From Leucoraja erinacea (taxonomy: Eukaryota), in NCBI RefSeq assembly GCF_028641065.1, contig NC_073385.1, positions 59,148,001 to 59,212,000 on the forward strand: DNA of 64,000 nucleotides. Direction: 5' to 3'. Of this stretch, positions 2,210-61,755 are shown piece after piece (positions within the stretch are counted from its first letter, which is position 1; every line of letters starts with the position of its first letter). The notes beneath the pieces are model-generated. The model had not been told where the DNA came from. It ran no database searches and saw nothing but the letters and a program-made list of their open reading frames with translations. The position numbers and the translations under genes were made by a program.

Positions 2210-2310
2210 GAGGTCTGAAGAAGGGTCTCAACCCGAAACGTCACCCATTCCTTCTATCCACAGATGCTGCCTGTCCTGCTGAGTTACTCCAGCATTTTGT
2301 GCCTATCTTC
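2210..2310 (+). mobile_element. Penelope-derived short element with hammerhead core
   Basis: CTGAAGA-AGGGTCTCAACCC-GAAACGTC at 2215-2242 followed by the family tail; flanked by (G)AAATAAAA repeats. Confidence 0.75.
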
Positions 2311-2532
2311 GAAATAAAATTAAATATAGCTTGACAAATAAATTTGTCAATATTGAGAAATTTATTCTTAGTCTGTGCTATAAATTATTTAATGGCCTAT
2401 TTTGAAGATCAATAATAAATAAGTAGAAACATTTAAATTTTATTTTTGCAGGTAGCGTAAAGAGTTCAGGTGAACAAAGGAGGGGCATAGGAGTAGACGG
2501 TTGGGAGATCGAACAGCAAAGGAGAACAGGAA

Positions 2533-2715
2533 TGTGTAGGAAGAAACTGCAGATGCTGGTTTACACTGAAGATAGACACAAAATGCTGCAGTAACTCAAA
2601 CGGGTCAGGCAGCATCTAGAAAAGGAATAGGTCTCGACCCAAACTGTCACCTTTTCCTTTTTTCCAGACATGCTGCCTGACCCGCTGAGTTATTCCAGCA
2701 TTTTGTGTCTATCAT
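2533..2715. mobile_element. Penelope-derived fold-back element
   Basis: Two inverted copies of the family tail; 13-bp TSD AGGAGAACAGGAA at 2520-2532 and 2716-2728. Confidence 0.75.
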
Positions 2716-4589
2716 AGGAGAACAGGAAGTTGGAAGACAGGGGGAAGAGGGGTAGAGAGAGGAGGGAGGTGAGGAAATGGACATGAGGAAGGAAGTCCAA
2801 ATAACGAATGGCAGAGGCTGGGAGGAGAAACAGACAAAGGGGAAAGCACTTGGCATGTCAGACGGTGCCTGCAGAAGGAGCAGTACACAGTTGAGGTTCC
2901 AGGTCACTGACATTTCCCCGAAAGGAGCAGAAATGAAACAAGTTTTCAGTTGCAGTGAAAGGTGGTGTGGGGAGTAGAGGGCAAGGGGCGTGTCAATGAC
3001 TGATAATCAGATGGCATGTGGGCAGGCACCAGCATTACAAGTGGTGACGGTGAAGGAGGGCAGAAAGTGTGGTCTGGAGTCAGTGTAAGCGAGGAGACGA
3101 GCTAAGCGGAGGCTCAGTATCAGTATCAGTATCAGTATATCTTTATTGTCATTTCCTGAGTACTCATATACCCAGAGGAAACAAAAAAACGTTGCTCAAC
3201 CAGTGTCCATTCAGTGTGCAGTACAAATAACAACAAGTAAATAGAAATAAAAATACATATATCATGAACAAATTAAATTAAACACTACTCTCTACTAAAC
3301 ATCAACAGGCGTTCCGATCGACAGCTGCTGCAGTGTGTCCAGGTTGGTGGTTGGTGCGTGATACTTTGGCAGGGGGCTAAGTCCGTTTATCAGTCTTATA
3401 GCCTGCGGGAAGAAGGCTTCTCACGAGGCGGAGAGAGGAATTACGTAGAGAGGAGGAAGGAAAAAAGCCGAAATGTGAGGTGCAAGACCTGATGTTCACA
3501 AAATGTTTCAATCAATGTGCAATCCTCTGGGTATCTCTTGTCAGCTGAAGGATAAACACAAAATGCCATGATGACGAGAGGACAGAAATTACTCTCTGAG
3601 TTGGGGTAAGGATGATTTCAATATCACAAAACAGGACCATAAAAGTAGACCAGCGGCAACGACTGACAGTAAACCCACATCTAACAAGTCGAAACAGAAT
3701 GAGTGAAAATTCAGGCCATCATAAGGATCAATGGACTAAACAGTAAATTCAAGGATCTTTTTACACAAGGGTTGGTGGGGGTATGGAACAAGCTGCCAGA
3801 GGAAGTAATTGAGTCAGGGACTATTCCAACATTTAAGAAACAGACATGTTACATGGATATGGACCAAGCGCGGGCAGGTGGGACTGGTGTACCTGGGACA
3901 TGTTGGCCTGTGTGGGCAAGTAGGGCCGAAGGGCCTGTTTCCACATTGTATCACTCGATGATCTAGGATGTGAGGGATATCAGGAACTTGGTAAAGAAAA
4001 GAATGGAAGCAGCTCTGGAGAACTGAAAATAGGGGAGACTACACCTTCAGAGGTATGGAAAGCGTGGGGGATGGTACTTAGAGAGATTAGCAGGGCAAAG
4101 GGCACTACAAAATATCACTGGTAGATAGAATTAAGGGAAATCCCAATGTTTTTAATGTATATTAAGAACCAGATGGAAAGCAGAAAGAGGGTAGGGCTCA
4201 TTAAGGACCAAGACGCAATCTGTGCGTGGAGCTGGAGGACGTAGATGAGGACCTCACTGAATAGTTGTGTGTTTACTGAGGAGAAGGACATGGTAGTTGC
4301 AGAATTCAGAGAAGGTGATGATGACATTCTCGAACACGTTATCAGCAAAAAGTGAGTATTAGATGTCTCAAGAGACTTATAGATGGAAAAATCTCCAGTG
4401 CCTTAGATGTCTGCAGCCCTATCAGACCCAAGTAGAAGAGAAACAAGTTTGTTGAGGTAAAGGAGAAAGTGGTGGAGCAGTGGGTGGGACAAAGGGAATT
4501 TATTTTATGTTGCAGCATGGCCAACAGGAACACGCACTGCTGGCTAGGAAATACAAAATGAAAGGAAAAGACTGAGAGGAGCAGAAATG

Positions 4590-5700: not shown

Positions 5701-7315
5701 GGTAGGGCATGTTATCTAATGTTGGAAAATTTCATATCAGCTGCAACAAGCCCAGACAAAAGATAAAGTGTTGTTCGTAGAGCTGGTGTTGGGTCTTATT
5801 GTAGCGCTGCAGGACACCAAGACAGAAAGGTCAGAGTGGAAGTGGGGAAGGGGGTGATTTCACCGGTGGCAGGTGACCACCCACGTGCCCCAAAATTCTC
5901 AGGTCCACATCCGGTGGGAAAAATCGCATCTCTGCGGACTGAAAACGCGCAAATGCAATTTACTTGCAAAGCACTGTGAGGCACAGCCGATCCTAGATTT
6001 ACAGTCTAATGTAAATTCAAGAGGACTGAAGGTGCCTATCCATGGTGAAGGAGCCGACAATGGGGATGCAGTACAAAATTGGGAAATTCGCGTTTTCCCG
6101 CTGTTCCATCATTTTTATTCATTTGTTAATGTTTTTTAAAAGTGAAAAATCCTCGCTATTCAAAATCGTCCGTCCTGAGGTTGGACGCAAGCCTCTGAAG
6201 CTGCATTTACCATTTAAATGGAACACCAATGCACAGATGTCGCAATAGATGATGCTGTGTTGGAGCAGGACATTTTAGCTTTGCCAGGATAACTTCCAAT
6301 GTTTCCAGCCTGCACATGCGACATAAGTTGTTTGGACGCTATTTGCTTTGGGGCTTTTAAATACCTCGGCAATTGTCGGCTCCTGGACTTCCGTGGAGAG
6401 GCACCTTCAGTTCCCTCTTGAATTTACCTTACTTGATCATCTTTTTTTCCCCTGTAAATCAGAGCTGTGCCCACAGTCACCCCGATTGCACCAGTAAATT
6501 GGCTCTCATTAGAATAGAATAGTTTTTTCTTTTTCCCATCATTGTAACATGAACCATGTACAACGAAATTTAAAATTTTGGTCACGTGGGTCGGATCCAC
6601 GCCAGTGACCTTTAGTGAAATCACCCTATACCGGTGGCAACCACATTTGGTTCTAAAAGCTAACGATACGTACAAGATAAAATATTAAAAGATAAACAAC
6701 TAAAATAAATATCATGAAAATAGCACGCATAAACACCCAACCCTCCATCCTTCTGTCGATTTCACAGTGTACCACAGTCCCTTAGTATGTATCGCCCCTG
6801 CGTTCCTTGGCGGGAGAAGTAGAGGTGAATCAATTACATCTTTCCCATCAGATGCCCGTTTGTTGATTGCTGCCAGGGGTATTACAAGCTGAGTGAGCTT
6901 GTGCCCCTCGACATGGAATATACAAGAGATGAGTGTTTGCCACACACACACGAGCAGCAGACTGAGAAAGAGTTGGTTGTATCACCAGTGCAATATTGTC
7001 GCTATCTAATATCTGGATCATTGGAAGATAAAATTCTACTGGGCTAGCAGAGACAAATGGGGATGACCGTTCAGGGGAGAGTAGCAGCAGCCAGATGTGT
7101 GGCACCGGGACTGGCTCTGAGGCACAGAGGGGTAGGGTGAATTCATGCAGAGTGATAGTGATAGAGGACTCAGTGGGGGAGGGCCACAGTCTAAAGTTTA
7201 GGGGATAGACAGGAGATTCTGTGGCAGCACACGGGACTCCAGGATGGTCTGTTGCCTTCCTGGTGCCAGGGTCCCAGATATCTTGGAGCAGCTGCAGAAC
7301 ATTCTCAAGGGGGAG

Positions 7316-7735
7316 ATGCTGCTGCACTCGCTGAGTTTCTCCAGCAATTTTGTGTACCTTCGATCTTCCAGCATCTGCAGTTCCTTCTTGAACACTTTGA
7401 CTACTTCACTGCGATATCTCCTCAAGGTATGCCTACTTTGAAGAAGTTCTCCTCCTCTCTAACTGCACCAACACCGGAAATTGGAGGAGCAGCACCTCAT
7501 ATTCCGCCTGGGCAGCTTGCGTCCTGCTAGCCCTTGCTGTCTCCTCCCCTTCCTTAACCCTCGAGCTGTCTCCTCCCATCCCCCCGCCCTCGGGCTCCTC
7601 CTCCTCCCTTTTTCCTTCCTTCTCCCCCCCACCCCCCATCAGTCTGAAGAAGGGTTTCGGCCCGAAACATCGCCTATTTCCTTCGCTCCATAGATGCTGC
7701 TGCACCCGCTGAGTTTCCGCAGCAATTTTGTGTAC
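7316..7735 (+). mobile_element. Non-autonomous Penelope-like element with terminal direct repeats, GIY-YIG C-terminal remnant and hammerhead motif
   Basis: 16-bp TSD CATTCTCAAGGGGGAG (7300-7315 and 7736-7751); RKLEEQHLIFRLGSLRP; CTGAAGA-AGGGTTTCGGCCC-GAAA at 7644-7667. Confidence 0.85.
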
Positions 7736-13432: not shown

Positions 13433-14077
13433 GTGAGTGGCCGCTGGTTTTGATGCCGTGATGAGCATGTGGACTGCTGCCACTCCTGCTCCAGCAGCAT
13501 GCTGTTTACCAGCTGCTCGTCCACTGTTCGGCCTGAGACGAGTCCCCCCCTCATCCATCCCCCACTCCAAGTCTCCGTACCAACCTCCTCCCGCTGGTCG
13601 CCCCTTCCTCCCCTTTCCCCCTGTGTGGCCTCCTCCCACACTTCCTAGGTCTTGCTGAAGCGTACGCACACCTGGTCTGTCCCATGTCTCAGCTGCCCTG
13701 TGGGAGCGAGGATTTCCGGTTTACCGGATATCATGGTTGACCAAGGATAGATCTTGGTTTATCCAAGGTGAATCACTTTGTCGCTGCTTGGAGCAGCAAC
13801 CATGGTTTATATTGCTTGGACCCAAATGGTCTAAATAGGCAGGAATGCGTATATTTGCAAAGCTAGCATATACTTTGACCTGTCACACTTGGCACGAATG
13901 TGAGCTGTACCACATTAGAGCCAGGCATGTGCTGCTTGAACTGCCCTAGATAGACACAAAGTACTGGAGTAACTCTGTGGGACAGGCAGCATCTCTGGAG
14001 TGAAGGAATAGGCGATGGTTCGGGTTGAGGCCCTTCTTCAGACTGACCTCACTGAGAGCAGTTTTCTCTTGCTGCAG

Positions 14078-15948: not shown

Positions 15949-18303
15949 GTATGGGCGGGGAGATTGGCCGGGCCACTGTGCTTATTTCTTTACACAGTCT
16001 ACAATTATGTACCACATTTACCAACCCTGTCATGTCACAAAGCAAGTGTAGCCAACCAGGTGCTCCCCAGGGTACAGATGCCTGACTTACGGACACTACA
16101 GTCGGGCATTTGGGAGACTGGAAATAAACAAAACCAGCGTGTGGGATGGATTCTCTGGTCGCTATAGGGATGCAGGAATTTTGTGCAGGATGGGATAGGG
16201 GGCATTTCCGCATTCCTCCTCTCCCAAGCTGCAACAATCAGGGGCTGAGTGGGCTTGAGCAGAGTTGGGAGCGCTGAGCAGACCCACTCCCTCATTCACT
16301 GAATCCATGAAGCCGGCCGGCTGGTGGCCGCTGTTCCCACGTCTGCTCGCTCTCCCAGCAGACCTGTGTCTCTGGTCCTCTACCACACACTGATTTTATT
16401 CATTTCCAACTCGTAGAAAGTTCTCAGGGACAGAACTATGACACAACCCGAGGAGTGTCTAGAAAATAATGTTGGACTATATTTGTTATGATAACGTGGG
16501 AAGCAAAGCCGGAAATGTACACACTTCCTATGCGTATTTCTTGAGATTTCCGAGTGACCAGACCAGTAATTATGTCATCTGAGGGATGTATCTTGGGAGG
16601 ACATCCCTGCTCTTCAGAATAGTGCCGTCAAATCTTCTACACTCACTTCCCAGGGCAGGGATGTACAAATCGCTGTTGCTGCCTGGTTCCCATGTGCTGG
16701 TTTAGTGCAAGAAAGGTTTATATTACATTGAGGAAACATTATTTTAAAAAGTTATCAAGGCTAATTAATCCTTTGAGGATTAAGGACTTGTCCAGGTACT
16801 GATACAATCTAGATTTTCTTTCAAACTCTGTTCTCAATGCAGCAAATAAATTTGCACCCTCCAGTTCTAATATCATTTGCGACAGTGCCCAGGATTTTGA
16901 AAGAAGGGTCTCGGCCCGAAGCCATTCCTTCTCTCCGGAAATGCTGCCTGTCCCGGAGCATTTTGTGTCTATCTTGAATTTGCAGACTGTAGCTAGGAGT
17001 CTAGGTAGGTCTGGGAGAGGAGAATCTAGTCGCATTGATGGAGGGTCAAGAGCCAGGGAGCACGGAACAACGGTGATTGGTACATGTTGAGGCCAGGTAT
17101 CAAATGCTAACAACTGCAACAATTCCTCTGGCCTTACATTTAATGTCAAAGTTGGGAGAGAATTTCTGCCGTAACTGGTGCAGTGAGCCAGCTTGTTGGG
17201 TCCACCTCTCCTACACTGTGGATCGCAGGTGCGTGCGCTTATTTTCTCTTCGGCATTTGCTGGTTTAGTTTATTTACAATTGAATTCTTGTAACCTTGCA
17301 GTTTAAGTTGCAGCGATAGGTCGGTAGCCCTTATCTTCCAGGTGATTGCTATTCCCTCCCCCTCCCTTCGCCTGTCCTCCCAAGTTCTAGATTCCCCCAC
17401 AAGATTAAACAATGTTTCAACTTCCACTTCATCACATCCCTCAAATCACAGGTTTCACTGGTTCATTCGTCTTTGTTCCAGATCTTCACCTGTCGCACCT
17501 TCCTCCCTGTTAACAGTGCATGCATATCCCTCCATAAATATGGTCATGACTGGGGTGCTGTGAGTTGGATTTGTGCTGAGACTTTCTCTTTACCACTTCA
17601 CGTCCTCTTTACAATAAAGACCAATGATCCATTCCCCTTCCCAAGGGATTTGTTGCCGTACAGAGGAACATTTCCTCCACTGTGGGAAATACTTCGCAAG
17701 GGAAGGAGGCAGTTTCAGGGCAGATGCTCGTGAGCACTTCATCTTGAGGGAAGTTGGAACACTTTTTCTCAAACTGATACTGAGGCCGGCCGTCAGTTGA
17801 CAACCTCTGAAGTGAGACTTTGAACTTTATTCGGCAATGCTATAAAACCCACACAACCAAGGTAGACAAACCCAGAAAAAAAAGCGCACAGTGCTAGAGT
17901 AACTCAGCAGGTCAGGCAGCATTTGTGAAGGACAGATAAATGACCCTTTTTGGTTGGGACCCTTCTTCATACTGATGCTGCCTGATCCTCTGAATTACTC
18001 CAGCACGTTGTTTCTTATTTCGAAAGCAGCATCTGCAGTTCCTTGTGTCAAGATAAACAAAGATCCAGGTCAGCAATGTTCGAATGAAAGGCAAGTTGAC
18101 TGGGGTGATGACGTGTGTCATTGTTGGACACAATTTTGCATGAAGTCGGTTGGAGAGGAAAACTTACTGGATTCATGGGCAGGTTGGGGTCTAATTGGCC
18201 TGGTGTGTAGGGCATGGTTTGAAGAGTTTACTTGCTTGGCCCGTATGCCTGGATGCTCGCTGTTCTGCCTGCCCAAGGCTTACTGATGGATTTCTGGTTA
18301 CAG

Positions 18304-19166: not shown

Positions 19167-20836
19167 GCTGAGCTTGTTGCACTGTGAAAGATTGTGTGCT
19201 CATTCTCTATCGCTTGTGCAGCTGAAACTTTAAGGGGTGGCGATGTTTGCGTTAATGGACTGTTCCAGGAGTTGGATGCTGTTCTTGGGGGTTGGAGAGA
19301 GCAAGGAATGTGGGGAGAAAGCTGGACAGGACTTTACACTTCCTCGATGCCTCTCGTGTAACTGTTAATATTTTCTTTAAAACAACTGTAACTGGTAACA
19401 TGTTCTTTAATACAACACCATTTAGCAAGATAAATTAACAAATAAATTAACTCTGAAAATGGTGTTCAGTGTAACACAATTCATTGAAGAGTGAAATGGG
19501 TCTCTGGCCCAGCATGACTTTTAGCTGAACACATGATCATGCAGGAAATGGAAGGATATATGGATCATGTGCAGGCAGTTTATCTTGGTATCATATCTGG
19601 TACAGACATTGTGGGTCGAAGGGCCTGTTTGTGTGCTACACTGCCCTATGACTCTTCAATTAGTGCCGGTCTCTGCTCTTTCCCCACAGCTTCTTTCAAC
19701 TGTGCATTCATTAGTTAGGATACAATTCAGATATCTGCACAAACGCAAGATTCCACAAGTACCTTTGCCCCTTCGTCAGGAATTGAAATCCGCCCTGGTT
19801 ACAAACTTTGTCAGCGGGATCAGTTTCTTCCCCTCTGACCAAACCACTTTCTCACTATCATTCTTACTCTGTTTCACAATTTCATAGCAGTATTTTAATC
19901 AGAATGACACGGATCCTGTGTGATCATAATAAATGTTGCCTAGTATACGCGTGGCAAAGCCCACACTGCACTGAGCGTTGGGCTCCATGGTCAATGGAAA
20001 CATCCTTGCTGGATCAATAATTGTGTAAGCTTCAACTCTCTCTTCCAATCTCTGGTGTTACATCGACTGGATTAAGGAGGGCAGGGCAGGTGATGCGCTG
20101 ATGGAGACACAAGAGACTGCAGGTGTTGGAGCCTGGATAAAAAGGTAGAGCTGCTGGAGGAACTCAGTGGGTCAGGCAGCATCGGTGTAGTGAAATGGAC
20201 TAAAGAATAAAGTGGAAGTAGCCAGTATAGAAGTGGAGGACAAGGGGTGGGTCAAGAGCTGGCAAGCAATAGATCAATCCAGGTGAGGAGATGTTGACTG
20301 GTAGGTTAGACTCAGGAGGAGGAGGGAAGGGTGTCAATAGGAATAGGGGCTAGGTGGGGATATGTAGAGATAACAAAAATCTGATAGGTAAGGAGGGTGA
20401 AGAGTGGAACCAAATAAGGAGACAGTGGAAGATTGGAACAACAGGGAGTGGAGCACAGCGTCCAGTGGGAGGAGTGTGTTGTTGAAGGGTAGGTGGGGCA
20501 GGGAAAGAAACGGGCAGTTGGGCCTGGAAGTTATCATGGGAACATGTTGGAGCTGATGAGAGTCAGGGGAACCAGAACATTGACACAGGACTTTGGAGAT
20601 TGTAGCATTCCTACAATGGTGGGGGCTTTCTTGTAGTGAACTGCTCCATCTTGGGGAAAGCAATTGCATTGAGCCTTGTTGCAGCAGCCAATGGGGAATA
20701 GTTCATTATGCAGGGGATGTTTCATGGGTCGGGCCCGTACATGCAGCCACAGTACCCGGCGTCTGCTCCCAGTTAGTGCTCCTTCCTGCCACCTGTTTGC
20801 AAAAGTAAACTCCAAGACTAGTTCATCATTTCAATC

Positions 20837-21699: not shown

Positions 21700-22054
21700 G
21701 TATCATATATACTTCAAGTAACCCTTGCTTTCCCCCTCTCTCCATCCCCTCCCCTTTCCTCGTTCCCCGATCAGTCTTGCTGTCTCCGACTGCATTTTAT
21801 CTCTGCTTTATTGTTACCTTCTCCCAACTAATGATCTGTTCTACATGCTCCTTGATCTCCATTCCCTTTAGTCATTTCACACCTTACACTTCCTTATCTG
21901 TGTACCTCCCACTCCCCTGACATCAGTCTGAAGAAGGGTCTTGACCCAAAACGTCACCCATTCCTTCTCCCCAGAGATGCTGGCTGTTCCGCTGAGTTAC
22001 TCCAGAATTTTGTGCCTATCTTTGATTTAAACCAGCATCTGCAGTTCACCCCTA
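21700..22054 (+). mobile_element. Penelope-derived element with decayed hammerhead core, HAUS2 intron 5
   Basis: CTGAAGA at 21928, GAAA changed to AAAA; family tail; flanked by CATCATCATATA repeats. Confidence 0.65.
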
Positions 22055-22958: not shown

Positions 22959-24592
22959 CTGGAGGACAACGAATATGGTGAGGAAGAAGGCAGGACAGCA
23001 GCGGAAGGGCTGATTCCTGTGAAAGCTTGACATTAATTATTGTCTCCGTGTTAACCCAAACCCCACAGGAACGGAGAGCGAGCGTTGATATTTTAAAATG
23101 TGCCCACTAAGAGAAAACCTAGGGTGCTCCAATCTGTTGCCCATCAGCTGTTTAGGAAAATACAAAACAGTGTGGAGTAAACAGGAACTCTGATGTCAGA
23201 TGCAGAGCACTTAAGTTGGCAGGTTGCCTCAAGGAGTGACGCAGCTGAATGGCACCAGGAAGAAGCAAGTTTTATGGCAAAAAAGAGAAAGCGAGAAAAG
23301 ATATCAGCAACACGATCAAGGTGAAACTACACAGGTTGTGTAAACGTACAAAAGACCAATTGAGAATGGATTAGGTCCTGTTCAAGACTAAAAAAAATAA
23401 ATTACATGCATCAAGTTGAGTCGAGTTTATTCTCATATGCACAAATACACCGAGCTAGAGGTAAAATGAAAACCTGTTGCAGCAGGATCGAAGGCACAGA
23501 CTCAGGAATATTCTATCAGACAGTGAAAAGAAAAAGTTTGCCAAAAAGACAGTGCAAAACAACATGAAAGTCAGTGGTAGTGCAAGAGGTGGTGTGTTGT
23601 GCTGTTGAGGTAAGATTAGGCATGTTCAGGTCGATCAAGAATATAAACCTTGCACCTGTCTTTACAGATGAGTGCAGCAATAAGCTCATTGTAGTTAATG
23701 GCAATATATTGAATCAGATGACCACAAATAAAAGTCTGCTGCATTTAAACTTAGTTGCAGGCAGGAATGAGTGAAATGTTTCGCAGAACGCTATGAGGAA
23801 GGAAGGAACTGGTGGAGGTTCACCTCATCGTTTTCCAGTCCGATCTGGTTATAAGAGTGGTGTCAGACAACTTCAAGTGTGGCTCTTTGTTTTAAAAAAA
23901 AAAGGAAGGACATAAACTGAATATATACATATCAGTCAGCAGAACTTTGAGGAATATGGCAAAAATAAAAATTGAGCGACAGGATTATCATTTTTAAGAA
24001 GGAGAGAGCAACAGGAGGAGCTGTCGATGCTGAAATCATGTGTCAAGCACAGTCACCCAGTGGGTCAGGCAGCATCTTTGGAGGATGTACTCTAGGGATT
24101 TTTAGCCCCTCAAAAAATTCAATCATCCTGCCCTTAACAAATCCTATCCTTCCCACATAATTACATCCTGCCGCACACTTTTTTGGTATTACTGCTTGGC
24201 TTTTTAATTAAGGTGGCAGGCAAGACCAAAGTTTAATGTCTTATCTCAAAGACATCATCGCCGACAACAACATCTGTGAAAATGATTGAAAAAGGGTCTG
24301 GTTTATGTATTACGTAGGCCTGGACATGAGGAGCTGGGGAACAGATGTGAGATTGAGTGGCCCTACTGCGGGACTGAATGATGCTATGATTGCAGCAGAG
24401 AACTATACTACTCTCAGCCAAACTCTCTTGTGGACTCAGACAGAAAGGTGTAATGCTGCTCAAGACGTTACAGTAAAAGCAGAGTGAAATGTCTTCAGAT
24501 GGTCAGCAATCCTGTTGCACATTTTGTGTGCAAGGTGCTCCAAAGTGTCCTAAAGATGCTCCAAGCACCAGTACACAAGACTTTCAGCTCAC

Positions 24593-40760: not shown

Positions 40761-43700
40761 CTGTTGAAAACAAGTCAGTCAGTCTCAGCTCACTGTACTC
40801 GACACACACACGCACGCAAAACCAATCTAACAGCACCCGATTCAACAAGGATAACATTGGGTGGGGCCAGTTTTTAAACTCAGTTTGTAAATTCACAACA
40901 GCTGCAGTTTGGACTGCTCTGCCTTCTCATCTGATATGAATTGTTTGAGCAGGAGAGGCCATTCAACACATTATACCAGCTACCAGAGGCACAGTCCAGT
41001 TCCACCCCCGTAATCTCACAAATGTTCCTCACCATATAATCATTCCCTCTTGGGAGGCCACGATTGAACCTCCTCCACCACATATGCAGGTGGTATTCTC
41101 CAGATAACATAAACTGCATAAAAGCTTTTCCTCGCGTCTCTCAATTGTCTTGGGAGTTTATTTTGAACCAGTGACCTCTAGTCTGACTCCAACAGTAGTC
41201 TCCATTTTGTCCAGTGTCGTCATTAATACATTTATCTGAAAAGAAACCAGTCGCACCTCTCCAATATATCCTTGTAACTCTCAGGCTTCACTTCCCTTCA
41301 ATTGAATTGAACACAATATTCCAGTTGATCCTGGCCCAGTGTTTTGTAAAGATCTGACAAAAATTGTCTGCTTTTATTCTAATGAAGTGTCTCACTAACT
41401 GCATGCCGTCCTGTCACTTGTGTGCTCTGAGCCTTCATTTATTTTTCAACAGTGTTCTTTGTTCCAAACAGCCTCTAATTTTTCCTTCTGAAATCCAGTA
41501 ACATTTTTTCCGCATTATGCTTAATTTACATCCTGAGCAAAATGCAAACTGCCGTGGGAACTCAGCACGTCAGGCAACAAAAATGGAGGGAAATGGGCAG
41601 ACAATCCTTCAGGTCGGGGTCCTTCTCAGGCAGGACTGTAACCAGTTCAATGCTTGATCTGTGTCCTACCTTTTAACATCGTCAAGGTTTTGGAGGAGCA
41701 ATTTCTACGACCTCCGAGTGAAGTAGTGATTCCTCACTCAATTTTAAACAATTTAAGATTAGCTACTTTATCAAAACATGGATCACACCCGTGGAGTACT
41801 GTGCAGTTCTGGTCCCTGCGCTGCAGGAAGGGTGTGATTACACTGGCGAATGTGCAGAGGAGATTCACCAGGGATAGAGCGCTCAAATGTGAGGAGATAC
41901 TGGGTTTGTTTGCCCTGGAATGGAGGAGACTGGGAGTGGAGGAAGGGGGTGGGGGAGAACTAGAAAAATATATAAAAGTAGGAGGGGGAAGAGATGGAGA
42001 AGATTTTCTCCTAGGGTGGAGGGGTTCAAGACAAGAGAACATAGGTTTAAGGTGAGAGGTAGGTGGCCTCGAGAGGATCGGAGGGAGAACTTTTTCAACC
42101 TAGAATGTGGTTGGAAATTGAGATTTATTGCTTGAAGAGGTGGGAGAGGCAGAGACTCTTTGACATTGAACAGCATCTGGACAAAACCTGAATCACCAGG
42201 GGAAAGAAGCCCCAGATCTAATGTGGGCAAATGTGATTGGTGTAATGGGCATAATGGTTAACACGATGGGTTAAAGGGTCCATTTCTATACTGTACAACT
42301 CTAAGGAACAAATAATGCTACAATGCTGAGAACTATTATGCGCTCTGTAACCTTCTCTTTGCTCTTTTGTACAAGTTTGGCTTGATTGTATTGACATGTA
42401 GTATTATCTAATTTGATCGCATTACATGCAAAGTATTTTACTGTACCTCGGAGCATGTGACAATAATAAATCTAGACATAGTGATGTAACACAGATTAAC
42501 TTTTCAATTCTGTGGCATATTTGTTGTCTAATATCTCCAGTTCCATTGATTTTATCCTCTGACCATCTCAAACAGATTACCCCTTATTCTAGAGTCCAGG
42601 GATGGTGTGATGTATTGCATTTGAGTCAAGACAATAGGTGCAGGAGTAGGTCATTCGGCCCTTCGAGCCAGCACCGCCATTCAATATGATCATGGTTGAT
42701 CATTCCCAATCAGTACCAGAGTTAGCGTTATTCAGCATTGAAAACAGATCTTTGGCCGAACAACAGTTTGTTCAAGGCTTCTGGGCACCACACGTTTGGA
42801 AACATGGCAAAGGATTTGGACAGTAGATTTACCAAAATATTTCACAGGAGTGAGGGATATGATTAGACTGGAGAAGCTGGAATGGTCTCTCGGGAACAGA
42901 GGGGCAGATGGCAAGAGATCCAAAAGAGATATTTTTGATCACGTGGGTTTGGACTGGGTGAGTGAAAACGATTCCCACTGGCAGAGTGGTCAAGAAGAAA
43001 GGGACAAAGAACAAAATTTAACAACAAAGAACCAAAAGTGAAGAAGGAATAGATAGGACAAATGCACAGAATCTTTTACCTAGGGTCGGGGTATTGAGAA
43101 CTAGAGGGCATAGGTTTCATGTGAGAGGGCGAAGCTTTAATAGGAAGCCAAAGGATTACCTTTTCACTCGGAGGGCGGTGGGCATATGGAATGAGCTGCC
43201 AGAGTCAGGTACTAGAACAACATTTCAAAAAAAAAACTTGGACAGATATGTGGATTGGAAATGTCGAGAGGAAAATGGACCAAAGGCAGGCAAACGTTTT
43301 TTTGTTTCCTCTGGGTATGTGAATACTCAGGAAAATGACAATAAAGATATACAATACAATACAATACAATACAAAAAGGACTAGCTTGCATGGGGCATCT
43401 TGGGTGGCATGGACGAGTTGGGCTGAAGGGCCCGTTTCCGTGCTATATTGTTCAATGACTGTACGACAGTGAGTATTTCAGGTATGGAGAGCACTTTCAA
43501 GGGGAGTGGAGGCAGATTTAACACTAGTTTGAGACCTACGGCAGTCTGGTAAATTTCCCCTGCGTTTCCAGCATGACCAATGTATTATTACTGAAATCCC
43601 TCACCCTTTACGGAACACAGGAAACGAGGTCTGAGCAGGATAATGTTCAACTTTGGAGTCATTCGACTCTCTGCAGCAATCCAAATACCACTACTCCAAT

Positions 43701-48390: not shown

Positions 48391-51088
48391 ACTCAACGAC
48401 ATCACATGCTCATGGCTCAAATACAGCTCGTCATCTACCAAGCCTTTGGAACATCCCAAAGGTGCGGGAGGAAGTACATAAAGGCTTACAGGGTCAGGAT
48501 TGCAAGCTTATTACACAAACAAACAGGCAGACACCGGCTCATGCAGCGTGCAGTTAAACATATCACCTACTCAGTTCGAGGACAGCACAGGCTGATCCCA
48601 AATCGTCCATGTTTTTCATGCAGATTCCACTGTGTACACCACTGTCTGGCTCTCTTTCCACTCAGGATTACATGAGGGTTAATCTCCATCGAATGAAGCA
48701 CAGGGTAGAGAACAAAGGAGGCAGGGTAGAGGGGTGAGGAAAGAGTAAAAGAGACAGCAAGAAAATGAACTCAAAGGCGACATTCTCAGTGCAGTATTAG
48801 TGGGGAGTCTAGTGTTACAGGAAATAGTTCCTCTTAAGCTGCTAACCGGAGTTAATGTGGTCAGTGGCAGGTCGAATTGATTAGACCATGAGTGCAGAGC
48901 AAGAGCCAAACGTTGGGAAGACTGATCATTGGAGACCAGCGGAAAGCAGTTAGTGCTGACACAGTTCAAACCTCACCCATTGTGCTCAGTCCCTCACACA
49001 CATTAGCCACAACTGCGCTCCGAGCTCAAACTCTGACCACACCCTCTCACTTTTGAACTTGTTTTTTTCTTCCCCATCTCACATTTGCAAAGACTTTTTA
49101 CATATTAAAATGAGAATGAAGCAAATCCATTGGCAAGCGCAGCATGGGTGCGATATTGAGTACAGGCCGTCCCCAGGTCTCCAAAGTCAAACGTATGGAC
49201 ACCCCTACATGGGAACAAGCTCACAGAATGTCAAATTCAAATGCCTGATGTACATACAAACTAGTTTCCTCGCTCACTCTGAAATTCAAATAATTGTTAT
49301 TTTCTTATCAGTCGGATGTGTTTTTCATGACACTTGTGACAACACTGTGGATGGAAGGTTTCCATAATGAGTGATCTTTGTATTTTTATTTAAACATGGC
49401 CAAACTGAACATCTCGACTTATGGACCTGTAAAACCAGAACTCATCTATTACCCGCGGCAACCTGTAAACCCCTCTACACTGTGCCGACAACAATGTTAT
49501 AAACCCAGAGCCAGCACCATTTGTATTTAATTCTCCAATGCCCTTTTTTGACTTATTCCAATCGTTTTAAAGCTGGGACATGCTTTGAATGGCTGCATCC
49601 AGTGTGGACTGATGGGTTGGTCTTGTGCTAGATTGATTGAAAGACACAGCATGGAAACAGGCCCTTCAGCCCACTGAGTCCATATGGACCATTGATCACT
49701 CGTTTACACTAGTCATATGTTTCCCCACTTCTGCATCCATTCCCTACACACTGGGGACACAAGTCAGTGCACAATAAACCCATGAATATGCACCTCTTTG
49801 CGATGTGGGAGGAAACCCGAGCACCCAAAGGAAGCACATCTTGTGGCATAGAGGGCAGCAGCTGAGGTCAGGGTCGAACCTGGTTCTCTGGCGCTGTGAG
49901 GAGCCGCTGCGCTATTAACAGCTGTACATCAGTACATCTCTGACCTCTAGCAGAACTGTCACACTCCGGAGATCAGGCTCCCCTCCTACACTGTCAGAGT
50001 GGCATCAATTTAAACCAACAGCTTGACTGGTTTTTTTTTTTGATGCAATAGGAATTTATCCATCATGGCAGTGGACAGTGGGGGTTACACCTGGTGCTCT
50101 AGCCAATAGTCATCTCCCAACATACAAAACTGAACAACAGCCGACGCTGGAAATCTGAAATAATGGTGGGAAATGCAGGAAACACTCAGCAGGGCAGGCC
50201 GCACCTGTGGGAAGAAACTTGGTGTTTTCAGGTCGGAACCTCTTCGTGAAAACTTAGAAAGAAAACAAGTCCGTTTTGAATAGGAGAGAGGGAAAGGAAT
50301 TATCTGCAATAGGTTGAGACCACATAGTGCAGTTATAAGCACATTAAGTTTCTGTATCTGGGTAACATGATGTTGAAGGTAAGACTGTGGGACTTGCCCA
50401 GCCTGCCAAATTATACGAACAGAACAAGGTAAACCGGGACAGAGCAATGACGGGGAGAAATGGCCACTTCTGAAAGACAGCAAATTATCTGAAGTCGGAG
50501 AATTCGATATCAAGCCAGGCAGCTAGTATGGGCCGAGACAGTAGATGAGGTTCTGTTCCTCAAGCTGGTGTTGGACCTCATTGTAACAGTGCAGGAGGCG
50601 CCAGACTGACGTCAGAGAGGAATGTGATGGTGGACTCAAGTGGTGCAAGGAGAGGCGAGTGCCTTCAGATCACTGATAAGGAACAGAGCTACGAGAAGGA
50701 TTAAACTCAAATCATGAACTAATCATTAAATCAGTAACATAACCTGGCCTCACTGTACCCAAGATAATCCCTTGGTTCCACCCATCCCTCCCTTTTCTCC
50801 CCCCCTGCTGAAAGCCAACTAACGTTTCCTGTTTTCCAGGTGTGCGTATGGTCCTGGACATGAAATGCTAACTATTTCTTTCACCACGGACGTTGCCCGA
50901 CCCGCTGAGTGTTTGTGTTTTGTCAACAGTAGTTTCTGTGGTTAGTATTCCATTGCTGTGTACTGGATCTCACTGTGCACGTGGTTGCTGGGCCCTTCAG
51001 CAGGACGGCAGTAACATCCCGAGTATACAATGCAAATGCAGTGGAGTCCAGGCTAGTTGTGACTAGGCGGAGGTGTACAGATGCTTAC

Positions 51089-53705: not shown

Positions 53706-54526
53706 TCAGTCCATGTACGCAATATACGCCACATTAAATCTTCCCCATTATTGTGTGATGCAACATTCTCACTTGCCTGTATGAACAATTTCCCATCTCA
53801 GCACCATCCAGGAAAAGCAGCCATTTAAATGGCGCCCTTATTCTTCACCCTAAACATTCATTCTCTTTACCAACTGCACAGTGAGTACCATCCACAAAAG
53901 GCACTGCAGTTACTCGCTCACGACTACCCCGGCGATACTTCAAACAGATTTCCACTTGAGATTCCCCTCCAGGTCCCACGCATTATCCTTCCCCTTCATT
54001 GTTACGAGTCAAAATCTAGAACTCTCTATCCCTCAGCACCGTGGGAGTACCTTTATCAGAAGGACTGCTGCAGTTCAAGAAGACAACTCATCGCATCGTC
54101 TGAAGGGCAGTTAAGAAATGGTCAACAAATAATAACCGTCTCAGAAATGCCCAAATCGTGAAAATAAGTAAATAAATAAAATGAAGGTAAACGAAACTCA
54201 GCGGGCGGGGCAGCATTTACGGGGCGAAGGAAATAGGCAGCGTTTCGGGTCGAAACGAAAAGATAAAATGATATCAGTTTTGCTGCTGGTAAAGTGAAAC
54301 TGGAGCTTCCAATGAATTCAATTGGCAAGTATGCGTCTTGGGCAAGGTCTGTTGTGATGTACAATGAACAATCAGCTGCCATTCAGTTCCAACAGGGAGA
54401 ATTGCACAACCTTTTCCCTGTCCTGGGGGCTTAAAAATGGGAATGCTTTAGTAAAAAGAAAAACATCTACTTTTGTTCCTCCGCAATGATTCAACAGGCA
54501 ACAGAAATCCCACAGTTAGGACTCAC

Positions 54527-55670: not shown

Positions 55671-55762
55671 TTACTCTGAACACAAATTTCAGGGAAAATA
55701 CATCCGACTGATACTGAGGGAATCAGAATCAGATAGTGCAAAAACAGGCCCTTTAGCATTAC

Positions 55763-57105: not shown

Positions 57106-58199
57106 ATGATGACGATGCCATGGTGCAGTCCTTCACACACCATGGTTACTGCAGGGCTGATCTTCTTTGAGCAGATTATGGGAGCACATTGTTCTTTTGG
57201 TGCACAATCCATTGTAGGATTCAGATGCTTTATCAGATAACCAAATCAAAGGGGCATTTCTTACATGATTAAGTAAAATACCTTATTATCTCAAGCAGTT
57301 ATACTCAAATTGTGTGAAATTTGGGATTACATGTAGATCAAATTTGAAATACCTGTATCATTGAGACATTTTGCTACTGTATGACATGTAACAAAGTTAT
57401 CTTTACATGGATACAAAAGGTATTGCAGATGCTGGAATCTTGAGTAAAAATCAAAGTAACACAGGAACTCAGTGGGCCTGTGGAGAAACTGGATTGATGA
57501 CATTTCAGGGTCAGGACCCTTCTTCCGACTGATTGGAGGAGGGGAGAGAAAGTTGCAAAATAGAGGTGGGACAAGCCCTGGTAATAGGTGGACACTGGCA
57601 AAGGTGGGATGGGGGTGGGAAATCTGTGGAGAGAAACAAGATAAACATAAAATGCTGGAGTAGCTCAGCGGGACAGACACCCTTCTTGAAAGAGCATCTC
57701 TGGAGAGAAGGAATGGGTGACGTTTCGGGTAGAAACAAGGTCACGCTTTGGGTCAAGGACTTTTTAATCGCAACCACTTAGATAAGAAAACAAACATGTT
57801 TTTTGTTGAAGGGTGGAGAGAAAAGGGAAATGTTTATGACCAGCTTATAGAGGTGTATAAAATCAAGAGGGGAATTGATAGGACGAATGCACAGTCTTTT
57901 TCACAGGGGAAATAAAAAAATTCAGAGGACTTAGGTTTGTGGTGAGAGGAGATAGATTTAATAGAAACGCAAGGGGCAACTTTTTCATGTTGAGAGTAGT
58001 GGTACATGGAACAAGCTGTCGGAGGAAGTAGCTGAGGCATGTACTATAATAACATTTCAAAAACATTTGGACAGGTATGTGGATAGGAAAGATTGAGGGA
58101 AAGGTTGAGGGAAATGGGCCTAGCTTAGATGGAGCCACCTTGGTCGGCATGTTCAAGTCGGAACAAAGGGTCTGTTTCTATGCTGTATGACTATGAATT

Positions 58200-59160
58200 G
58201 CTGGTTCAACAGCCAAGATTGTTTGGATCCCTTTATGGTGGGTGGGGAAAGAGGTGCAATGTGTTGAATTGCTTGCAGTTGCAAGGGAAAGTAAGTGGGA
58301 ACAGAAGAGCAATCCAGTGAATTGCAAAGAAAGCAATCCCTTGAAAATGCTGGATGTGCTGGAGAGAGGACGACGAGTCTGGAGGAATCTTGTTGGAGCT
58401 GGGAGAAATTGCAAATGATCTGTTGAATGCCGAGGCTAATAGAGTGGAATGTAAGGATCCGTGGAATTCTGCTCTTGCTCTCTCCAGGAGGAAAGATGGC
58501 GAGAGCAGAGGTATCGGAAGTAGATGAGGTGTTGCCCAAGGCTCTGGTGTGTGGACAGATTATACATCCATGGTGAAGACGAACAGGTTTGTGCCAGGGA
58601 ATGGAAACTACCGAAGTGGCGAAGAGCATGTGAAGTGTTCCCACTGTGAAAGGGTCAAGGATGGAGCAGGGAAAAAGGTAGCTGGAGATACTCTCCCACT
58701 CTCCTGACATCAGTCTGAAGAAAGATCTAGACCCAAAATGTTACCCATTCCTTCTCTCCAGAGATGCTGCCTGTCCTGCTGAGTTACTCCAGCATTTTGT
58801 GTCTATCTTTGATTTAAACCAGCATCTGCATTTCCTTCCTACACATAGTTTGAGATGCACCCAGTGCTTCCTACTGCCCACCATTGTAGGGCAGTTTCCC
58901 ATGCAACCACAAGAGACCAGGGACCCATACAGTCTTTCCAGGCAAAGGAGTGATTCCAATGCACTCGTGTACTACATCCTGTGTTCACAGTGCAGGCCGT
59001 GAACATTGGAGAAACCAAACACAGTTTGCGTGATCCCCTCCTGCACTGTTGCAAGAAGGCCCAACATAAGCTTGAGGCATGGCACTTTGTCATTAACCTG
59101 GGTATGTTGCAGTCTGCCGAGCCTCCAGAGTACAGAGTTCTCCAACTTTCCGTATCTCAC
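58200..59160. mobile_element. Degenerate Penelope-like ORF remnants in opposite orientations around a hammerhead-bearing terminal repeat
   Basis: Minus strand RIPRILTFHSISLGIQQII.NFSQLQQD (post-RT linker); plus strand LVYYILCSQC..IGETK (GIY-YIG); decayed core at ~58714. Confidence 0.65.
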
Positions 59161-60399
59161 TCTCTGTACCACAACCAGCCATTTCTCCCGGTCTCCATTT
59201 ATTCAGATTTTGCAGGGTTTTTTTTACACTATCTTCCTGCTTGGCAATCTGTATAACTTGATCATTCATATTAGGGCATTGGGTTCCCCCCCCCCCCCCC
59301 CATGCCAAAATATATTCTCTTTGTCCTACCCATCCCCCACCAGTTTCTCCGCTACCTTGACTAACTTGTTTTCTCTCTCAGTACCGACGAACAGCATTTG
59401 CCCTGAAACGCTAACCGCTTCTCTTTCTATCTGCTGAGAACTCTCAGCGTTGCTTCCTTCATTTCAATTTGCCGGCATCTGAAGTCTATTTTGTCATTTA
59501 ACATCCTTTTTTAAACTCTGCCCCATACGAAATAAACCTCGGAGCCAACTTGGCGTTTTGTATAAGAATTGGTCATGTTTTCTTGTGCTGCAGGCTTTTA
59601 CTGATTTGTATATTAGGTGACTGCAGACAAGATTGACGGTGTGCAGCTTTAAATATTTCTCATGCTGCATAACCTGTCCTCATGCAAAATTATAAACAGG
59701 AACAGTTCAGATGCATGGGGCTAAAACATTCATCTATCAATAATTGCATTAATATATAGTTTAATCTCAAGAGCCTTTTTTCAACTGTTACATAAGCACT
59801 ACTTGTTACATACAAACCAAACAAAGCCGGCACCTCACAGCAATCAGCCCCTTTGTGCCCGTTTCCTCTCCATAACTACCCTGGTTTCCCCTCGCATTCC
59901 TTTCTTCCAATCTTACATCACCCAGCTCTCACCATTCTCTGGTGCAGTTTCTTCCGACACAATTTGTCTACTCCAGCTCTCACCATGTTTCCTTATCCCC
60001 ACCGGCAAATAAAAACCCACTCCTCCCAACGGATCCTCTAATGCTCTCCCTTCCCGTCCCTCTGCTGTTCTCACCTGCCACTACTCCTCATCATTCAGTT
60101 ACATTCTTCACTTTCCTTTCCCACCCTATTCCAGAATCCGTTACCTTTTTCTTCTCCACTCATCACTTCCCGGCCTCAGTCGCAGACTGCACCCTTTCCT
60201 CCGCAACTGACCATTGTCTACTAATCAACCCCGCCTCACCTGCATTCACCTATCGCGTGCTGGCTCTTGCCCCACACCTCTTTATGCTGCCCATTCCCCC
60301 TCACACTGGGAATGGGCACATTTACAGAGAGGCATATGGAGCCATGCACAGCAGCTGGTTGAAGATAAAGGTTTACAACCAGGAGTTATTTTAACCTGA

Positions 60400-60729
60400 A
60401 GGTACACAAAAATGCTGGAGAAACTCAGCGGGTGCAGCAGCATCTATTGAGCGAAGGAAATAGGCAACGTTTCGGGCTGAAACCCTTCTGCAGACTGATG
60501 GGGGGTGGGGGGGAGAAGGAAGGAAAAAGGGAGGAGGAGGAGCCCGAGGGCGGGGGGATGGGAGGAGACAGCTCGAGGGTTAAGGAAGGGGAGGAGACAG
60601 CAAGGGCTAGCAAAATTGGGAGAATTCAACGTTCATGCCATCCGGACGCAAGCAACCCAGGCGGAATATGAGGTGCTGTTCCTCCAATTTCCGGTGTTGC
60701 TCACTCTGGCAATGGAGGAGACCCCGGAC
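60400..60729 (-). mobile_element. 5'-truncated Penelope-like insertion (GIY-YIG end, 3' UTR, hammerhead motif, tail)
   Basis: VRGLLHCQSEQHRKLEEQHLIFRLGCLRPDGMNVEFSQFC*; 12-bp TSD ATTTTAACCTGA at 60388-60399 and 60730-60741. Confidence 0.88.
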
Positions 60730-61626
60730 ATTTTAACCTGACTCTTCACTAGAATGTTGCAAAGTTAACAATTTCACCCTGCTCTCTTTCTGGAACCCTG
60801 TAATTTTCTCTAGTGTGCTATCATTTCAAATTCGCACTTTCTGCAGGGCAAGTTGGTAGCAGGTTCAATCTGCAGTCCAGGTCTGGCAGTCAAAAGTACT
60901 GCGTTTTACATTACAGGGCCACATGCCAATTTATACACCTTGACGACTGGAGAAAAAATAGGAGAACTAACATGGGTGTCAACAACACCACAAACGTTAA
61001 ACCCTTCAACAACACCACAAACGCTGCTATTTGTGACAGCTTGTTTCCTGCACATTGGCTATTGTTTCCTTCAACAGTGGTCACACTGCACTTCCAAGCT
61101 TTTCCCGGAGCGGATCACTGGCAGGCTTCCGAATGCCCCCCCTGGATGCAAGTGGAGAATTGTCCCCTTTGCTCAGTTACAAAATCAATGACTTTTGCAA
61201 CAAAAGAGGGTCTACACAGGACAGGGGACAGTCAGACAGTAACAGGGAAGGAACTGTGAGCTGTCACATTGCTACCAAGCAATTAACATTTGACTGGCCT
61301 TATTTTACTTTGGTGAGAAAAGACTTTGTGAAGCAAGAATTCTAACCACATTTACAGCATTGCTGGGGAAATTTACCCTGGAAGATTTTTAAACAAAATA
61401 CACCAGAACATGTATTAAAAAATATTTACATTCCCAAACAATCACAATCCGCAATATCCCAAACAAAAGATTCCTTTGGACGAGTTTCATTTCTATTCAT
61501 TAGAAAAGGAGAAGCAGGGCTCTACATATGGAACCTGTTATCACGAGGGAGTTAGATTTAGCTCCTAGGGCTAAAGGAATCAAGGGATATGGGGAAAAAG
61601 CAGGAATGGGATACTGATTTTAGATG

Positions 61627-61755
61627 TGTTCAAGAAGGAACTGCAGATGCTGGAAGATCGAAGGTGCACAAAAATGCTGGAGAAACTCAGCGGGTGCGGC
61701 AGCATCTATGGAGCGAAGGAAATAGGCAACGTTTCAGGCCGAAACCCTTCTTCAG
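61627..61755 (-). mobile_element. 129-bp hammerhead mini-element inserted into a CR1 3' tail
   Basis: Minus strand CTGAAGAAGGGTTTCGGCCTGAAACGTT; 14-bp TSD ACTGATTTTAGATG at 61613-61626 and 61756-61769. Confidence 0.85.

Follow-up and report, generated by a model that had tools for sequence, protein, structure and literature searches.

The question raised by this locus is what kind of repeat carries a hammerhead-like motif through the window (the whole 64-kb stretch of skate DNA that was analysed), and what sets the ends of its copies. An earlier note had read the repeats as Penelope-derived elements bearing a minimal hammerhead ribozyme; that reading is partly supported, and the repeats are real and of a known kind. 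A profile HMM search of the window returned 33 fragments at E<=0.01, as against none in a reversed-sequence control, and 37 rows at the looser threshold of E<=1. A repeat was found at all 17 positions listed earlier, each on the strand claimed. The exact core pattern has four window matches (0.00 expected from 100 shuffles), and the core is intact in 4 of the 33 fragments: exactly the four cores previously called intact (2215 plus, 25157 minus, 38630 plus and 61755 minus) pass the strict descriptor, that at 61755 with G10.1-U instead of G10.1-C. The spacing given earlier, one copy per 3-4 kb, did not hold: it is about 2 kb for fragments and about 16-20 kb for intact cores. The GIY-YIG C-terminus reported upstream of the motif at 7316-7735 and 60400-60729 is present. 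An Rfam scan of the window gave a hammerhead match at no copy, and only sub-threshold miRNA models, best on inverted pairs. The features are as follows.

2212..2333, plus: subfamily B unit; intact core 2215-2242, predicted cut after 2242
2546..2723, both strands: inverted head-to-head pair lacking the 5' core (2546-2633 minus, 2629-2723 plus)
7300..7315, plus: left copy of a 16-nt TSD (right copy 7736-7751), read from the sequence
7316..7470, plus: upstream piece of a composite insert, with pLTR end, 38-nt tail (~7359-7395) and start of the element body
7471..7638, plus: GIY-YIG C-terminus (RKLEEQHLIFRLG, followed by a deletion), then pyrimidine-rich 3' UTR
7639..7735, plus: subfamily A unit ending at tail site 1; core 7644-7671, palindrome broken by G16.2>A
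13920..14046, minus: decayed B unit with broken GAAA, just upstream of a large VPS18 coding stretch
16901..16984, plus: decayed unit between two VPS18 coding stretches
17884..18039, both strands: old head-to-head pair (17884-17975 minus, 17969-18039 plus) between VPS18 coding stretches
20151..20194, minus: 3' fragment without core
21923..22048, plus: B unit with tail and G12>A, preceded by pyrimidine-rich sequence
24051..24083, minus: short 3' fragment
25066..25158, minus: subfamily A short unit; intact core 25130-25157, start at -1, end at tail site 1, TSD of ~15 nt
27258..27294, plus: weak 3' fragment (E 0.008)
30604..30706, plus: unit truncated within stem II, tail present
30782..30875, plus: old decayed unit
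31160..31406, both strands: head-to-head pair (31160-31288 minus, with C3>A; 31294-31406 plus)
32391..32524, both strands: old inverted pair of 3' fragments
36056..36162, plus: old decayed unit whose flanks, read from the sequence, could pair as a 4-bp helix I (CAGU/ACUG)
36937..37004, plus: 3' fragment without core
37452..37666, both strands: young head-to-head pair with 86-nt arms, 94% complementary; minus arm with tail, plus-arm core with U4>C and a stem II mismatch; 11-nt TSD
37997..38043, minus: weak decayed fragment
38629..38722, plus: subfamily A short unit with an intact core (38630-38657) adjoined by a 14-15-nt TSD
41526..41626, minus: old decayed unit
50171..50245, minus: old decayed unit
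50853..50937, plus: old decayed unit
54193..54256, minus: A-type unit truncated in stem II
57463..57532, minus: old decayed unit
57636..57736, minus: B-type unit truncated within stem II and carrying an internal insertion
58710..58835, plus: B unit with tail; stem II and G12 decayed
60398..60729, minus: 5'-truncated copy with GIY-YIG C-terminus and stop (60610-60729), 3' UTR and core with A6>C; end at tail site 1, 12-nt TSD
61626..61761, minus: subfamily A short unit with tail; core 61728-61755 with G10.1-U, end at site 2, TSD with microhomology to ATCAGT

The affiliation with Penelope is borne out by a shared ORF C-terminus, by domain matches and by the continuity of tail and element body. 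Natural open frames of 838 and 727 amino acids have the same C-terminus as the window copies, and the single ORF comprises a reverse transcriptase (RT) followed by a C-terminal GIY-YIG endonuclease (EN), as in EN+ Penelope-like elements (PLEs); RVT_1 (E 5.3e-6) and GIY-YIG (E 8.6e-4) both score just under the Pfam gathering cut-offs. The protein has 1,569 homologues, the best named ones being from sharks (63-70%). In seven cases (L077, L081, L082, L091, L100, L102 and L104) the pseudo-LTR (pLTR) and tail run into the ORF start as partial tandems. Read in order, the unit runs from the ORF stop through a pyrimidine-rich 3' UTR and TCAGT to the minimal hammerhead, then through end site 1 (+91 from C3), a 38-nt tail and end site 2 (+129) into the next ORF start, with the first in-frame ATG ~160 nt beyond C3. 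The insert at 7316-7735 is a composite of these parts (pLTR end, tail and 5' body, then a jump to the EN C-terminus) within its 16-nt TSD. We conclude that these repeats represent a Penelope-like retrotransposon's pseudo-LTR end. By its linker motif alone the element is classed as Neptune-type: the L061 ORF has CNRKKCNTC, which fits the CX2-5CxxC zinc-finger-like linker between RT and EN, a type of linker that, in the excerpted text of PMC8557442, occurs in Nematis as well as Neptune. A classical SINE was considered and rejected, as Rfam found no tRNA-, 5S- or 7SL-derived head in the window and the unit is collinear with the PLE pLTR.

As had been anticipated from the window, the family is very large: a genome-wide pattern count gave 40,789 exact 28-nt cores, and we estimate ~10^5 intact motifs and ~10^6 fragments per genome. 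The 100-nt unit alone makes up ~3% of sampled DNA. The core pattern had no match in metagenome contigs.

The motif has the CUGANGA, GAAA and UH core of the minimal type I hammerhead of PLEs, together with a G10.1-C11.1 pair, an extra nucleotide that lies after position 9 and before 10.1 (used by 19 of 21 descriptor matches in a random sample) and a palindromic 15.2-16.2 without loop 3, which reads ACGU in the main subfamily consensuses and ACAU in one three-copy group picked via a decayed query. The proposed pattern, with its extra A and ACGU, is supported and matches the PLE motif in the excerpted text of PMC4209133. The UUCG loop proposed for stem II is present, but the pair closing it is U.G, not C-G, and CUCG takes its place in about half of the copies. 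Cleavage as a monomer or dimer is putative, and folding disfavours it. In six A and six B copies the predicted probability of helix I is ~0 and that of stem II is 0-0.04 (A) or 0-0.93 (B), whole units fold with no greater stability than shuffled sequence (z -0.4 to +0.5), and tail-to-core pairing is predicted in several A copies.

It is possible, if on balance doubtful, that the hammerhead is a dead relic in this lineage, its bases being kept as promoter or RT-binding sequence; this would be compatible with the explanation that we favour below. Helix I has two contiguous bp in every subfamily consensus, as against the 4-5 bp typical of PLE minimal hammerheads, the youngest subfamily barely forms the predicted stem II, and the double-hammerhead dimer fold (-6 to -7 kcal/mol) is ~15-18 kcal/mol worse than the competing duplex (-21 to -25). 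Neither insertions nor reads end at the cut site, where fragmented RNA-seq reads showed no cut ends. However, subfamily changes spare the catalytic bases: all five differences within -2..+29 are ribozyme-compatible (chance ~0.02-0.03). N7 is also more variable than A6 (1,714 versus 1,010 variants), an excess of only 1.7-fold for which mutational context could account. Because conserved blocks are also present downstream of the ribozyme, the constraint is not ribozyme-specific. Poor folding of the naked RNA is to be expected: helix I is likewise 2 bp in the Drosophila virilis ribozyme, and in Anolis the ribozyme needs its protein in order to cut.

Insertion took place one copy at a time, with TSDs of 9-17 nt, and left either solitary copies or head-to-head pairs, which later decayed. 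TSDs of at least 10 nt flank 12 of 35 copies (control, 0 of 290), and TSDs of at least 9 nt flank 23 of 41 short-start copies, as against 2.8% in shuffled pairs. Among 210 matches there were 34 head-to-head pairs and one tail-to-tail pair, the inverted 5'-truncated arrangement known from PLEs, and about a third of fragments sit in head-to-head pairs.

We sampled 80 consecutive exact cores at one contig end, requiring an intact core, and assigned short and long classes by a score gap (<=22 versus >=46), as automatic length bins are unreliable for low scores. Ten cores were inverted, 41 lost homology within ~11 nt upstream of the core and 29 ran on. Hence, 41 of the 70 non-inverted copies start within ~11 nt upstream, at TCAGT, and intact-core copies mostly start a few bases from C3. 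We take TCAGT to be initiator-like, by an assumed initiator consensus that is only 7 nt long. In the young subfamily, 15 of 26 non-inverted copies start at -7..+2 and none at +19..+40, around the cleavage site. TCAGT is kept across subfamilies with unlike upstream UTRs. All five of its bases occur in 13 of the 41 short copies, for only some of which microhomology accounts, so some 5' ends lie upstream of the predicted +1. Nested exact-match counts fall genome-wide from 45,142 (+8) to 24,385 (0) and 7,137 (-10). At the other end, 3' ends cluster at +87..+98 and +123..+131, and RNA-read junctions lie at +90/+91 and +128, consistent with an optional tail of 30-40 nt. A lenient all-against-all extension gave no 5' hot spot; as it overextends, through lenient scoring and shared inverted arms, we discounted it and instead judged 5' ends by reference-, TSD- and count-based tests. 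The fixed start just ahead of the ribozyme may be where the element RNA begins. Within the literature searched there was neither a description of a fixed PLE 5' end nor a published account of a hammerhead-Penelope family in skates or sharks.

Raw RNA reads from three runs under the same species label gave top 5' junctions at -3/-2; no site where many molecules begin was listed from them, and the transcription start was not observed. Depth was ~2,800 on the unit and 0-25 on the element body, and of the bulk reads 95-96% continued into unlike sequence, indicating that the RNA signal is host read-through.

Taken as a whole, we consider it probable that these PLE pseudo-LTR ends were produced by internal priming. 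By analogy with an Anolis PLE, the RT-endonuclease would nick DNA and begin to reverse-transcribe the RNA internally, at sites 1 and 2, and from the first internal site synthesis would run to the 5' end of the RNA. On the specific step we lean, by a small margin, towards a transcript that starts at the initiator-like TCAGT, so that cDNA primed at the 5' copy of the sites would be complete at 95 or 130 nt, its 5' end fixed. Such a start would account for why short, SINE-like copies are so abundant, why helix I has only 2 bp (C3 has just ~3 nt upstream of it) and why chimeras jump at that point. Priming at the 3' copy would give the rarer, randomly truncated long copies. The template would be uncut RNA, the ribozyme probably cleaving only slowly, aided by protein, in master elements; the cut would dampen transposition rather than define the unit, because the cap would be lost or the ORF parted from the priming sites. 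The dispersed copies would be mostly inert passengers. More tentatively, and at somewhat less than an even chance, the PLE makes its own SINE-like progeny, 5'-copy priming copying the capped leader from initiator to tail (95/130 nt), which is the ribozyme domain. If so, some 10^5 intact hammerhead motifs, along with ~10^5 long head-to-head hairpins, would owe their spread through the genome to a by-product. An internal promoter, if there is one, could let every short copy be transcribed and give rise to further copies, and the ribozyme, lying right at the 5' terminus, would serve as a protein-triggered off-switch, taking off the cap.

The same element could instead have a 5' end fixed by an RT stall or template switch on long RNAs, at a protein on the C-rich tract or at RNA structure around the core (the tail pairing with GAAGAAGG, as predicted in several A copies, or the subfamily A GUUUCGG/CCGAAAC hairpin). 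We regard this as unlikely. Inverted junctions do gather at +2..+10, 46% of exact +8 matches fall short of C3, above the loss from divergence alone, and no start site is visible in the RNA reads. However, when RT stalls at a structure it normally does so on the 3' side, and the fixed end lies past the structure. The hot spot is also found in subfamily B, where 14 of 30 non-inverted copies are short despite a different UTR and no hairpin, and copies that extend past -10 nearly all continue much further.

Still less probable is that the pyrimidine tract and CAG before TCTGAAGA form a 3' splice site that lengthens helix I or sets the 5' boundary, as the D. virilis intron, which ends at helix I, would suggest. 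The polypyrimidine-CAG is present in all subfamilies, but no GT-AG joint was found among the joints listed from the three RNA runs (126 weaker joints lie outside these), short copies adjoin TSDs with no common exon, and body-to-core chimera junctions are variable and non-GT. The link to retrozymes made in the earlier note, and with it any element defined by self-cleavage and copied via circular RNA, is largely refuted and barely credible: the unit is short, non-coding and bears a type I hammerhead, and part of it is repeated at one locus as a 66-nt tandem array, but that array lacks CUGANGA, complete units nowhere form tandem arrays in the window, a same-strand neighbour within 500 nt was found for only 10 of 109 core-bearing matches, unit boundaries lie ~30 nt upstream of the cut rather than at it, and the copies are dispersed and TSD-flanked with PLE tails.

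Because the link between this ribozyme and Penelope is already known, the finding itself is ordinary. Its scale adds value, as a unit making up so much of the sampled DNA is yet invisible to Rfam, and the young insertions, in their tens of thousands, amount to an in vivo record of the points at which cDNA begins and ends. This record agrees with the two internal start sites shown in vitro for another PLE, argues against self-cleavage defining the transposed unit and points to a single position for the RNA 5' end. The skate family makes the role of the PLE hammerhead directly testable.

Minimal hammerheads in the pLTRs of metazoan PLEs were described by Cervera and De la Pena (2014, PMC4209133). 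As far as the excerpted text goes, those share with ours the type I core, the extra nucleotide after A9, G10.1-C11.1 and the palindromic 15.2-16.2 without loop 3, and are mostly single dispersed truncated-PLE copies with some close opposite-strand pairs. Helices I and II have 2 and 4 bp here versus 4-5 and 7-8 bp in Schistosoma, and a D. virilis variant with a 2-bp helix I is included there. The ~9,000 Xenopus and ~4,000 coelacanth motifs compare with our 40,789, though counting methods differ; we found no cartilaginous fish in that text. As in Neptune-clade EN+ PLEs in the parts of Craig et al. (2021, PMC8557442) consulted, there is a single RT and C-terminal GIY-YIG ORF with a CX4CX2C linker and DKG motif, along with partial tandems, inverted 5'-truncated copies and a 30-40-nt tail. 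Unlike in that description, the clade here being assigned by motif only, TSDs are clear, the flanks inspected have no obvious microsatellite bias and the 5' end is fixed, a feature not described there for Neptune PLEs. Poseidon PAc of Anolis, in the portion of Frangieh et al. (2024, PMC11167929) available, likewise has two 3' ends bounding a tail and a hammerhead near the ORF start, and uses uncut RNA template, with no reads ending at the ribozyme cut and protein-assisted cleavage; that portion maps neither a transcription start nor genomic-copy 5' ends. PAc belongs to a different clade, and its ORF starts at stem II rather than ~160 nt past C3. Penelope of D. virilis (Schostak et al. 2008, PMC2377424) shares the 2-bp helix I and has an internal TATA-less promoter with an Inr in the pLTR; its start lies 46 nt before a 75-nt intron ending at helix I, whereas here no intron was seen and the putative start lies directly against the core. 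Animal non-LTR retrozymes (Li et al. 2026, bioRxiv 10.64898/2026.07.22.740005) are also non-coding, PLE-related and bear a type I hammerhead, but they need at least two consecutive complete-ribozyme units, whereas the copies here are dispersed or inverted, with TSDs.

The recurrence of the motif in the window is real. The exact core pattern has four matches against 0.00 expected, and a profile built on 10 copies from the window detects 33 fragments (E ≤ 0.01), against none in the reversed window; all 17 motif positions listed in the earlier note are among them. Exactly four copies pass a strict minimal-hammerhead descriptor, and these are the cores that the note had called intact (2215 +, 25157 −, 38630 + and 61755 −). 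In the remaining copies the core or stem II is altered, with many changes at CpG sites. No hammerhead in the window has an Rfam match. Unit coordinates count from C3 of CUGANGA (= 0), with the predicted cut between +27 and +28.

A 40-residue frame at 60610–60729 matches two proteins (three candidates), both from skates. P0001 is a LINE-type RT fused to the same GIY-YIG nuclease as the element; P0002 (netrin receptor DCC isoform X2, Amblyraja radiata) has, near residue 1280, ~30 residues of the element's GIY-YIG C-terminus in frame, which could be either exonisation or an annotation artefact. When the 2.19-Gb skate genome was searched with the endonuclease part, 98,403 candidates emerged at first look, of which 150 were scored, and we fetched 15 loci from among those with the longest frames. 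Two carry natural open frames of 838 aa (L061) and 727 aa (L062) that share the C-terminus of the window copies, match RVT_1 and GIY-YIG, each slightly below gathering scores, and show a DKG motif and, ahead of the nuclease, a CX4CX2C linker; such a linker is given for Neptune and Nematis in the available text of PMC8557442. The element protein has 1,569 homologues, the closest named being from sharks (63–70%) and the next from marine invertebrates (about 50%). Partial tandems reveal the order stop codon, ~110-nt pyrimidine-rich UTR, TCAGT, hammerhead, end site 1 (+91), 38-nt tail, end site 2 (+129) and ORF start near +160. The Penelope origin proposed earlier agrees with these frames and this pLTR order, and the element is an EN+ PLE, of Neptune type judging by motif.

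Other features of the window and of L067, a locus fetched from the skate genome
7316–7735: composite insert of element parts within a 16-nt TSD
14056–16167 and 18223–19023, +: VPS18 coding stretches (Pep3_Vps18, E 7.5e-82; RING at end)
36350–36658, +: exon of a leucine-rich-repeat protein
27432–27977: inverted repeat, 245 nt, 76% complementary, 56-nt spacer, not of the skate PLE family
55479–55765 and 6007–6431: smaller inverted repeats
392–898, 10770–11327, 25175–25702, 34366–35013 and 8759–9751: other retroelement-like fragments
L067 2131–2693 and 7082–7605: tandem array of a 66-nt unit piece, GAAAC to the T-rich end, without CUGANGA

Three repeat fragments lie between the two VPS18 coding stretches, and one directly upstream. 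Pfam gives an RT match at 392–895 and ALKBH8_N matches at 10770 and 25178, and none for 34369–35010 and 8762–9532. The L067 array is satellite-like, with inverted pieces interspersed. At another fetched locus (L077 861–1484), minus-strand reads of the single-cell RNA run X21 outnumber plus-strand ones 3–11 times in most bins; internal oligo-dT priming on antisense transcripts is a possible reason.

That the family is very large genome-wide, as the note had supposed, was borne out by a whole-genome count of 40,789 exact 28-nt cores (control 0). A random sample of 40 evenly chosen 10-kb stretches, drawn from contigs C1–C10 only, holds 178 fragments, of which 94 span the core and 21 satisfy the descriptor (20 belonging to the skate PLE family; reversed controls 0). 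The unit makes up 3.3% of its bases. Scaled to the whole genome, the sample implies about 1.0 ± 0.1 million fragments, with intact motifs numbering about 10^5.

Most intact-core copies have a fixed 5′ end. Among 26 non-inverted copies of the young subfamily A in the unbiased sample, 15 begin at −7 to +2, five at +11 to +48 (none at +19 to +40) and six farther upstream. With a method based on TSDs only and covering all subfamilies, a repeat of at least 11 nt flanks 55 of 202 copies (control rate 9%), and 10 of the 5′ ends fall at −8 to +4 (control 0.4%) against one at +24 to +32. The first 80 exact cores of contig C1 include 10 inverted; 41 have at most about 11 nt upstream in common with any other copy and 29 extend at least 30 nt upstream, with no scores between these classes, and a TSD of at least 9 nt flanks 23 of the 41 (control 2.8%). 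Genome-wide subfamily A counts fall from 45,142 (+8 to +24) to 24,385 (from 0) and 7,137 (from −10); since 11 of 13 long copies have the −10 pattern, the 5′ end of roughly two thirds of the intact-core copies falls within those 10 nt. In two bulk RNA runs the 5′ junctions are commonest at −3 and −2, one locus giving about 60% of the −3 reads. At many junctions, microhomology of 1–9 nt to the target blurs which base is the exact end. The peak was absent in one lenient all-against-all extension analysis.

We infer that RNA starts at TCAGT. The initiator consensus is YYANWYY, and TCAGTCT fits it. The pLTR of D. virilis Penelope carries an internal promoter that includes an Inr (PMC2377424, as far as its available text goes), and an Inr-like TCACT is described for rotifer pLTRs. 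Element RNA would begin at the initiator-like TCAGT just ahead of the hammerhead, and reverse transcription primed where the tail sites first occur would yield a complete 95- or 130-nt cDNA. Such a model would account for the fixed start of copies, for the read depth on the unit, roughly tenfold that on the nuclease region, for a helix I with only a few bases available ahead of C3, and for chimeras in which the 5′ body is linked, with variable joints, to about −5. Most of these chimeras come from loci chosen for carrying body. A fair rival is that RT stalling on long RNAs causes the fixed 5′ end. As to a start at TCAGT, no pile-up of molecule ends was seen in the RNA runs, whose fragmented libraries are poor for caps and cut ends, and no GT-AG joint occurs among the RNA-read joints listed. 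The element body has almost no RNA reads, and 95–96% of bulk reads continue into unlike sequence, as expected of passengers in host transcripts. How PLE RNA begins and is used can be tested directly through this fixed 5′ end.

Is the ribozyme alive? Subfamily consensuses differ at five places within −2 to +29 (two loop II bases, a stem II U·G/U-A, U·G/U-A at 1.1 and C/U at position 17), all ribozyme-compatible; with 14–16 of 32 transitions being so, the chance of this pattern is about 0.02–0.03, post hoc. Variants are commoner at N7 (1,714) than at A6 (1,010). Both observations would favour a live ribozyme. Against it count the conservation of downstream blocks too; a helix I of 2 bp, as the note's caveat of 2–3 bp had warned; a stem II that in fold predictions hardly forms in A copies and varies among B copies; a predicted double hammerhead of −6 to −7 kcal/mol, where a competing duplex reaches −21 to −25; and the rarity of same-strand neighbours within 500 nt (10 of 109). 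Copies paired head to head would instead fold into long hairpins. In the predicted fold of 61626–61758 (−), the tail end pairs with the core sequence GAAGAAGG, and AGAUGCUG pairs with CAGCAUCU; this encloses the 130-nt unit and hides the catalytic bases. Known min-HHRs cleave weakly even as dimers (PMC4209133), and the Anolis hammerhead cuts only with its protein and is dispensable for insertion (PMC11167929), according to the available parts of both papers. We lean towards master elements keeping protein-assisted cleavage; dispersed copies are mostly inert.

Inverted pairs are strongly one-sided: 34 head-to-head (68 hits) vs one tail-to-tail among 210 hits in the window and random sample, with TSDs enclosing the whole head-to-head pair. 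Their transcripts (e.g. window 37452–37666) would form 60–130-bp hairpins, a possible source of double-stranded RNA and false miRNA calls; 34 pairs in 464 kb extrapolate to about 1.6 × 10^5 genome-wide.

In a search of mainly open literature, we found no paper on a fixed PLE 5′ end or on the family in skates. We conclude that the element is of a known kind, correctly caught by the note, whose value is raised by copy number and the fixed 5′ end. The link drawn to retrozymes is not supported: the available text of bioRxiv 10.64898/2026.07.22.740005 defines these by a tandem criterion, and by that criterion the unit, with its scarce same-strand neighbours, is not one. 3′ ends of copies concentrate at two tail sites, with RNA-read junctions at +90/+91 and +128, in agreement with the pair of internal sites at which reverse transcription of the Anolis element starts in vitro, according to the accessible part of PMC11167929. 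The minimal hammerhead stands as a motif, agreeing with the min-HHR description as far as PMC4209133 was available except that helix I is short. The same source gives about 9,000 motifs for Xenopus and 4,000 for coelacanth; the skate's exact cores are more numerous, but counting methods differ.
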